Shown here one piece after another: positions 61,275 through 61,502 of a DNA stretch of 64,000 bases. Position 1 is the stretch's first letter. The number at the start of each line of letters is the position of its first letter. The notes beneath the pieces were generated by a model. The model made no database searches, was not told the DNA's origin, and was given only the letters and a program-made list of their open reading frames with translations. The translations under genes and the position numbers were made by a program. The stretch is taken from NCBI RefSeq assembly GCF_056746865.1, contig NZ_CM163382.1. One strand, 5' to 3'.

Positions 61275-61502
61275 TCCAATCCCACCTCTCCACATGGAGA
61301 AGGTGGGGCTTATTGCCTGATGCGCTACGCTTATCAGGCCTACAAAACAAAGCGCAGTTTGTTGAATTTGCACGTTCTTGTAGGCCGGATAAGGCGTTTA
61401 CGCCGCATCCGGCACGGCCCCTCTCCACATGGAGAGGGTTTGGGTGAGGGAAAAGCCTCACCCCAGCCCTCTCGGGTAAAAACATTGATGAAGGTTAATA
61501 CT
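61275..61502. repeat. mtlA-mtlD intergenic repeat cluster: two REP units in opposite orientation flanked by two ctccacatggag-type hairpins plus a gggtgagggaaaagcctcaccc hairpin
   Basis: gcctgatgcgctacgcttatcaggcctac and gtaggccggataaggcgtttacgccgcatccggc; perfect palindrome ccctctccacatggagaggg. Confidence 0.7.

Follow-up and report, generated by a model that had tools for sequence, protein, structure and literature searches.

In a 64,000-nucleotide (nt) stretch of DNA from RefSeq assembly GCF_056746865.1 (contig NZ_CM163382.1; hereafter the window), the mannitol genes mtlA and mtlD of the E. coli mtl operon are separated by a 228-nt spacer (61275–61502, + strand) that we identify with high confidence as a mosaic of a BIME-1-type unit (bacterial interspersed mosaic element, here with two repetitive extragenic palindromes, REPs), a compact inverted pair of BoxC repeats, and a local hairpin, HP1. 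Because the spacer is built from two long-described repeat families, it is ordinary apart from its conserved BoxC-type part. This part lies directly upstream of mtlD, at one fixed position, in 66 sampled species of Enterobacteriaceae, and its pattern of substitutions probably reflects constraint at the level of RNA. On balance, we lean towards an explanation that joins the repeat mosaic and the RNA-level constraint to a role as decay barrier or insulator in the mtlADR mRNA. Elements of this kind are already known, the BoxC family since the 1990s, and since the operon is well studied and the cluster a textbook case of intergenic repeats joined into a mosaic in enterobacteria, it changes little; the positional conservation of the mtl copy and its RNA-type substitution pattern are a modest new observation. 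The function of BoxC is a question that dates from the 1990s, and mtlA-mtlD is a convenient, inducible locus at which to test whether BoxC hairpins act in RNA.

The operon runs on the + strand in the order mtlA (59361–61274), mtlD (61503–62651), and mtlR (62651–63238). The spacer extends from the mtlA stop codon (TAA, 61272–61274, taken from the open reading frame (ORF) list and coinciding with the annotated mtlA in BLAST) to the mtlD ATG, and contains five palindromic units, namely HP1, two REPs, HP2, and HP3, together with a third CCCTCTC arm. The strings and positions quoted in a preliminary description of this spacer were all recovered within 61275–61502. A 246-nt region that includes the spacer folds with −110.7 kcal/mol (z = −8.4 relative to shuffled controls), the individual units giving −20.2 (HP1), −44.3 (REP pair), −15.8 (HP2), and −16.3 kcal/mol (HP3). 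The string CTCCACATGGAG occurs exactly twice in the 64 kb, at 61288 and 61423 (0.18 expected with one mismatch allowed), and the pattern CCTCTCC-N4-GGAGAGG likewise has 2 occurrences against 0.08 expected. No repeat features are listed for the mtl spacer in the RefSeq annotation of MG1655, and an Rfam scan of the region returned a single match, to naRNA4, which falls on the REP and below threshold. Davis et al. reportedly noted "five REP sequences" in the mtl spacer in 1988, a number that would agree with the five palindromes.

The part of the spacer that carries our argument is the segment 61419–61476, which reads CCCTCTCC-acat-GGAGAGGG-ttt-GGGTGAGGG-aaaag-CCTCACCC-cag-CCCTCTC-ggg on the + strand. 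Arms 1 and 2 form HP2 (ccctctccacatggagaggg, ccctctcc/acat/ggagaggg, 61419–61438), arms 3 and 4 form HP3 (gggtgagggaaaagcctcaccc, gggtgagg(g)/aaaag/cctcaccc, 61442–61463), which is the centre of the inverted pair, and arm 5 (ccctctc, 61467–61473) together with the following ggg (61467–61476) makes up a right-hand BoxC unit that lacks its final GGGAGAGGG arm. Read in this way, HP2, HP3, and the tail constitute a BoxC inverted pair, type-A-like on the + strand and, tail to tail with it, type-B-like without the last arm. The third CCCTCTC arm had been overlooked in the preliminary description. It creates an 18-nt inverted repeat, GAGAGGGTTTGGGTGAGG / CCTCACCCCAGCCCTCTC, that competes with HP2, and the resulting long hairpin, GAGAGGG-ttt-GGGTGAGG / CCTCACCC-cag-CCCTCTC (61432–61473, + strand), excludes HP2 altogether.

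Several lines of evidence identify this segment as BoxC, which is equated with PIT and TMECO by Holder 2015 (PMC4666352) in a literature that includes Bergler 1992 and Bachellier (both cited in PMC4666352 and PMC2267715) as well as Hoyne 2000. The pattern GAGAGGG-N3-GGGTGAGG occurs once per strand, both times in the spacer and nowhere else in the 64 kb (expected 0.00): as GAGAGGG-TTT-GGGTGAGG on the + strand and as GAGAGGG-CTG-GGGTGAGG on the − strand, 6 nt apart, in the inverted A + B pairing. The layout is the same as that of the MG1655 BoxC pairs at hrpB-mrcB, fepB-entC, and alx-sstT, and a CCTCACCCCAGCCCTC run is identical in the mtl module and at fepB-entC. Holder 2015 lists 23 copies in MG1655, with inverted A + B pairs at five sites, and the mtl module resembles these in being intergenic, in its A + B pairing, in its arms CCCTCTCC, GGAGAGGG, GGGTGAGGG, and CCTCACCC, and in having 3-nt linkers, of which TTT is close to the TTA of type A, while CAG is complementary to CTG, the linker found in TMECO no. 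8. It differs in that the gap between the two units is 5 nt rather than 16–28 nt, in the missing last arm of its right-hand unit, and in the first stem, which in Escherichia has 8 bp (base pairs) instead of 9. The published consensus for a strict TMECO is CCCTCNCCC-N3-6-GGGNGAGGG-N3-GGGNGAGGG (PMC4666352), whereas the window copy, CCCTCTCCa-ca-tGGAGAGGG-TTT-GGGTGAGGG, is one bp short per arm; with a first stem of 8 bp rather than 9, it escapes the strict pattern and is therefore absent from the published list of 23. The strict consensus is matched by 24 of 66 mtl orthologues and a relaxed one by 53 of 66, and on these sequence grounds we file the Escherichia mtl copy as a degenerate, BoxC-derived copy and not as a strict TMECO. 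The "perfect palindrome" of the preliminary description is an inverted repeat, although really one of 9 + 9 nt around a 2-nt centre, in effect 8 bp with a 4-nt loop. Similarly, the two near-identical ctccacatggag hairpins that it reported are exact in this allele but allele-specific, the HP2 loop of K-12 being TCAC.

A covariance model built from the mtl orthologues alone (R1) matches the canonical BoxC pairs at three unrelated MG1655 loci, hrpB-mrcB (55.1 bits, E = 3e-11), fepB-entC (52.9 bits), and alx-sstT (49.4 bits), with E-values up to 8e-10, and in a scan of the window it found nothing besides the mtl module. Conversely, the two best window matches of an nhmmer profile made from the 23 TMECOs both fall in the spacer; they are weak (E = 0.2 and 1.2, with heavy bias correction) because of composition bias. 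The canonical BoxC 36-mer is found in 5425 of 5426 complete E. coli genomes, with a median of 19 places in each. HP2, HP3, and the tail thus belong to a repeat family other than REP, as had been proposed, but HP1 has no match from the model. A genome-wide search for the ctccacatggag hairpin had also been suggested; this hairpin is not dispersed, HP1 and HP2 both being single-copy, and it is the BoxC family that is dispersed and multi-copy, the mtl BoxC-type copy itself being confined to a single intergenic locus per genome. For counting family members we relied on pattern counts, the published list, the canonical 36-mer, and the covariance model, since 20-nt matches with one mismatch exceed E = 10 in a 28-Gb database, which makes BLAST unfit for counts of such short members.

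Within E. coli, the BoxC-type module is present in 5405 of the 5426 genomes, with at least 95% identity in all but five. The form seen in the window accounts for ~449 of the 5405, and the HP2 loop reads TCAC in MG1655 (K-12), TTAC in the GTDB representative of E. coli, and TCAT in E. albertii. For a wider view, the mtl locus was fetched via MtlD from 80 species, one genome each, and the spacers were extracted. The module stands directly upstream of mtlD in 66 of the 80, that is, in every species without a Pantoea-type spacer, among them members of Escherichia, Citrobacter, Salmonella, Klebsiella, Enterobacter, Kosakonia, Cedecea, Buttiauxella, Mangrovibacter, Siccibacter, Franconibacter, and other genera. 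Its orientation is uniform over the 66 species, with GGGTAAAAACATT..GAAGG..ATG coming next after the truncated right arm in most of them. While the loops of the 66 orthologues vary freely, the arms are nearly invariant. This fixed position also sets the mtl copy apart from the published work on BoxC, which stresses variability. The comparison of these sequences indicates that the module has been inherited vertically upstream of mtlD since the Enterobacteriaceae ancestor.

The distance between the mtlA stop codon and the module is another matter. This gap is empty in some lineages (spacers of 91–109 nt), holds one REP in Citrobacter and Salmonella and another palindrome in Klebsiella, and is occupied by HP1 and the BIME in Escherichia; the shortest mtlA-mtlD spacer among the species sampled is 62 nt. 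An ERIC/IRU element (GTGAATCCCCAGGAGCGTACATAAGTACGTGACTGGGGTGAGCG...) has inserted at this place in C. werkmanii, in one C. youngae, and in strain RIT691 (L013 1281–1500, L015, and L053). As the slot holds ERIC, REP, BIME, or other palindromes depending on the lineage, it is an insertion hot spot. The 13 Pantoea-type spacers (L075 1407–1500; also L071, L073, L077–L082, and L084–L087) have no BoxC and carry instead a pair of GC hairpins, GGGGCGGGCaagCCCGTCCC and GGGGCGGAtttGCCCGCCC, which are near-duplicates of each other and can rearrange into a single long hairpin (−43 kcal/mol), a structural analogue of the BoxC module with a different sequence. Two of them, L071 and L078, are labelled Enterobacter. 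We also noted that the BoxC copies of MG1655 at hrpB-mrcB (L005 83–130) and lldD-trmL (L004 316–365) start ~10–12 nt past the upstream stop codon, a placement that resembles that of mtl in species with minimal spacers, in a sample too small to judge.

The substitutions in the module suggest that it is probably under constraint as RNA. In the alignment of orthologues (A2), 91.4% of the cells of the long hairpin are paired, compared to 36–58% in slid controls, and 7 pairs (18 cells) have changed on both sides, a number reached by 0 of 500 shuffles. The 3-nt linkers covary, as TTC/GAA in K. oxytoca and Buttiauxella and as CCA/TGG in Siccibacter colletis, and the HP3 arms show compensatory changes, namely GGGAAAGG/CTTTCCC in Franconibacter and GGGTGAAAGG/CCTTTCACCC in L054. 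RNAalifold independently recovers the long helix. Because MAFFT left the loop gaps of HP2 unplaced, this hairpin was judged by folding each sequence; every one of the 63 aligned sequences has a hairpin at the HP2 position (medians 9 bp and −17.1 kcal/mol). Counts on the sense strand are 67 for G.U-type cells compared to 4 for those of the A.C type (27 compared to 4 without the linker column), an excess not expected from selection on the other strand or from strand-symmetric selection on DNA. A DNA triplex, a form proposed for BoxC, was set aside as an unlikely constrained form at mtl on indirect evidence, since arms 3 and 4 covary by Watson–Crick pairing, which favours RNA hairpins, and since a triplex on GGGAGAGGG (the proposed G.G-C with arm 2) would be mismatched by GGGAAAGGG, the variant seen in Franconibacter.

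The other constituents of the mosaic are younger or more variable. In agreement with the preliminary description, the spacer contains a convergent REP pair: one REP unit (gcctgatgcgctacgcttatcaggcctac, 61315–61343, + strand), an L-type inter-REP motif of ~36 nt (aaaacaaagcgcagtttgttgaatttgcacgttctt, 61344–61379) delimited by alignment with the fliC-fliA BIME and the mtl locus of MG1655, and an inverted REP unit (gtaggccggataaggcgtttacgccgcatccggca, 61380–61414, − strand) recognized by pair detection, BLAST, and alignment, the two REPs having 16-nt arms that are 94% complementary. We take the first unit to be Y-type in the palindromic unit (PU) nomenclature, and the succession of REP, ~36-nt motif, and inverted REP to be the BIME-1 (RIP-RIB) layout, which is said to go back to Gilson, Bachellier and Hofnung, to Boccard and Prentki in 1993, and to Oppenheim in 1993. 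The whole unit recurs elsewhere, as expected for BIME-1 pairs: its alignment with the BIME at fliC-fliA in strain M7638 spans its full length, including TTGAATTTGCAC.TTCTTGTAGGCC; BLAST matches at other loci span query positions 38–140; and the 105-nt REP unit (61312–61416) is found at a median of at least 40 places per genome in 5425 of the 5426 E. coli genomes. It differs from BIME-1 pairs in that a putative IHF-like site that the inter-REP motif carries on its minus strand (attcaacaaactg) appears weakened in this allele, with CTG for TTG; read as ATTCAACAAACTG, it departs from WATCAANNNNTTR at 2 positions, compared to 1 for MG1655. The BIME varies in size within E. coli, with two REPs in the window and in K-12, four in an APEC (avian pathogenic E. 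coli) strain, and most of the inter-REP motif deleted in one strain, and at least 80% of the window spacer is covered in only 3480 of the 5426 genomes. The BIME-1-type unit (61315–61414) is a recent and plastic insertion. The match to naRNA4 (RF02564, a REP-derived nucleoid-associated RNA) covers the inverted REP and HP2 (61383–61439) and reflects the shared REP hairpin; at 41.3 bits it stays below the gathering score of 59.5, as REP-containing regions generally do, and the mtl region is not a member of this family.

HP1 (cccacctctccacatggagaaggtgggg, cccacc-tctcc/acat/ggaga(a)ggtggg(g), 61281–61308, + strand) is an 11-bp hairpin with one bulged A that starts 6 nt past the mtlA stop codon; its fold as RNA has z = −4.3. 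By BLAST it has a single place per genome in E. coli, and among the 80 species it was seen only in E. coli and E. albertii. In E. albertii the stem of HP1 is a perfect one of 14 bp (−25.6 kcal/mol), kept up by substitutions that give G.U pairs. In the allele of the APEC strain, two substitutions break the stem (−8.9 kcal/mol, z = −1.3), and ~1954 genomes belong to the 90–95% identity class that includes this type of allele (93–94% identity). HP1 is young and, as taken up below, dispensable. Its core (CCTCTCC-N4-GGAGA.GG) agrees with that of HP2 at 19 positions out of 20 here and 17 out of 20 in K-12, and its simplest origin would be a local partial duplication of the HP2 core. We rejected the idea that HP1 and HP2 are a target-site duplication left by insertion of the BIME, in view of the single REP that stands beside HP2 without HP1 in Salmonella and Citrobacter; the position of HP1 upstream of a REP that appears to be shared also opposes it. 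A parallel to the Escherichia HP1 is seen in Cedecea, Franconibacter, and Siccibacter, which, besides the conserved module, have extra BoxC-like hairpins immediately past the stop codon of mtlA (L063 1334–1400, L057, L069, L074, L043, and L050).

What these elements might do in the operon can be approached through known systems. The preliminary description had offered a terminator or an mRNA-stability element, and the latter is plausible, fitting both the precedent of REPs (PMC6061677) and the RNA-type conservation at mtl. According to PMC6061677 (its refs 30–31), REP hairpins are established 3' protective structures and act as stabilizers inside operons, for example, malE-malF (Newbury 1987; Khemici and Carpousis 2004). 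The mtl spacer shares with these the presence of stable extragenic palindromes in a polycistronic mRNA just past an upstream stop codon, but its most conserved hairpins are of the BoxC type rather than REPs. We tentatively propose, by analogy, that the spacer elements act as RNA within the mtlADR transcript, where they would serve as a decay barrier or insulator that fixes the ratio of mtlA to mtlD and mtlR expression without terminating transcription. In this possible mechanism, the GC-rich hairpins would let RNA polymerase pass; once endonucleolytic cleavage or downstream termination has occurred, they would form exonuclease-resistant barriers that guard the mtlA segment at its 3' end. They would also cap the mtlD-mtlR segment on its 5' side and keep mtlA translation apart from the independent, A/U-rich start site of mtlD.

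The BoxC-type module can adopt two folds of nearly equal energy, either HP2 + HP3 or the long hairpin. In the window, the long hairpin has −34.7 kcal/mol and the three-hairpin form −37.5 kcal/mol; across species the mean difference between the two exclusive conformers is 0.75 kcal/mol, with 38 of 63 sequences favouring HP2 + HP3. The first helix of at least 5 bp begins a median of 7 nt past the mtlA stop codon in 81 spacers, and a terminating ribosome could therefore bias the choice of fold. One may speculate, although we regard it as improbable, that the module works within the mtlADR mRNA as a conserved RNA element that acts in cis and is bistable, switching between HP2 + HP3 and the long hairpin, possibly steered by the ribosome terminating at the mtlA stop, and that it sets the output of mtlA relative to mtlD and mtlR via differential decay or processing. 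If this were true, BoxC repeats would act as RNA structures and not as DNA triplexes, and no BoxC copy before that of mtl would have had a role that could be assigned to it.

A number of observations weigh against the RNA-level account and the decay-barrier role that we attach to it. The covarying cells are not independent events, a single column pair supplies 40 of the 67 G.U cells, and the arms are so conserved that the covariation rests on few positions; with almost invariant arms, much of the conservation could also stem from homogenization among BoxC copies instead of local selection. The HP1 allele is decayed in roughly a third of E. coli genomes, which makes HP1 dispensable. Published reporters, as related in PMC4666352, showed no effect of PIT/BoxC on expression, and that account stresses instability at the DNA level. 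We found no published 3' or 5' ends, half-lives, or protein ratios for mtlA and mtlD, so that the mechanism rests on analogy: mtlA is absent from the supplements of Adams 2021, where mtlD has only a single antisense site, the 2026 MtlR paper makes no mention of the spacer, and no open papers on REPs in the mtl spacer were found.

The decay barrier and the three explanations considered in the following are not mutually exclusive. The one that survives best, although we consider it unlikely, is that the spacer is neutral repeat DNA, in which BoxC as a DNA element (intrastrand triplex or cruciform) and REPs as mobilized repeats have piled up in a permissive place with no effect on mtl expression. 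The dispersed nature of both families agrees with this, as do the reception of REP, BIME, ERIC, and extra BoxC units by the spacer in different genera, the variable copy number of the BIME in E. coli, and the decay of HP1 in many strains; Holder 2015 (PMC4666352) moreover ties TMECO sites to local genomic instability with no shared gene function. Neutrality accounts poorly for a module that has kept its position, orientation, and truncation across 66 species, with loops and flanking spacer free to vary. It is likewise at odds with the compensatory changes in arms 3/4 and the linkers, with the Watson–Crick covariation of arm 3 and arm 4, whose Franconibacter variant would break the G.G-C triplex with arm 2, and with a G.U excess that is specific to the sense strand.

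A stable hairpin at most ~15 nt from the mtlA stop codon could also hinder the terminating ribosome and lower MtlA via ribosome rescue. Liang, Rudd and Deutscher are said to have found in 2015 that REPs close to stop codons have this effect and reduce yield. The placement of the first helix past the stop, which fits a 3'-end barrier, fits such hindrance equally: HP1 begins 6 nt past the TAA, the median over the 81 spacers is as given above, and arm 1 of BoxC begins 7–13 nt past the stop in minimal spacers. In Escherichia, moreover, where the BIME has displaced HP2 from the stop codon, a new HP2-like hairpin, HP1, stands at that very spot. On the other hand, about one E. coli genome in three has an allele with a degraded HP1, the first helix lies more than 10 nt from the stop in 21 of 81 spacers, and the distances were taken from mtl spacers only. 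We give little credence to translation-coupled control of MtlA as an explanation of the spacer.

An intra-operon terminator or attenuator, in which the hairpins, or Rho at the BIME, would stop some RNA polymerases and leave mtlD and mtlR transcribed less than mtlA, is improbable, as no terminator-like site was found on the + strand between 60900 and 61900, the hairpins are followed by cttatt (HP1), tttggg (HP2), and cagccc (HP3) with a T-run after none of them, and PIT/BoxC had neither promoter nor terminator activity in an earlier reporter study as summarized in PMC4666352. Rho-dependent attenuation has been reported at BIMEs (Espeli 2001, ref 32 of PMC6061677, which is our source for it), and the untranslated spacer is C-rich in places; the C-rich arms, however, are locked in stable helices, which is unfavourable to Rho loading, and it is the BoxC module that is conserved, not the BIME. 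The second hairpin of the Pantoea-type spacer ends in TTTCGTCATTT, but it was likewise not flagged as a terminator. Nor did a scan of the spacer find a promoter-like site that could re-supply mtlD and mtlR.

Downstream of the repeats lies the A/U-rich translation-initiation region of mtlD (taaaaacattgatgaaggttaatact, 61477–61502, + strand), which is strongly conserved in alignment A2 and includes the Shine–Dalgarno sequence gaagg (61490–61494, + strand) upstream of the ATG at 61503. Initiation at this ATG yields an MtlD of 382 residues with a conserved N-terminus. An alternative start at ATG 61320, 183 nt farther upstream (ORF 61320–62651, 443 residues), was rejected; this longer frame exists because the reading frame stays open across the repeats, and a naive gene caller could wrongly place the mtlD start there. 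The mtlD stop and the mtlR start share one base at 62651, and the two genes are therefore probably translationally coupled, whereas mtlA and mtlD are separated by a structured gap of at least 62 nt in all 80 species. Finally, a 628-residue ORF on the − strand (59487–61373) runs antisense to nearly all of mtlA and reaches into the spacer; it is probably a shadow ORF that arises from codon structure.

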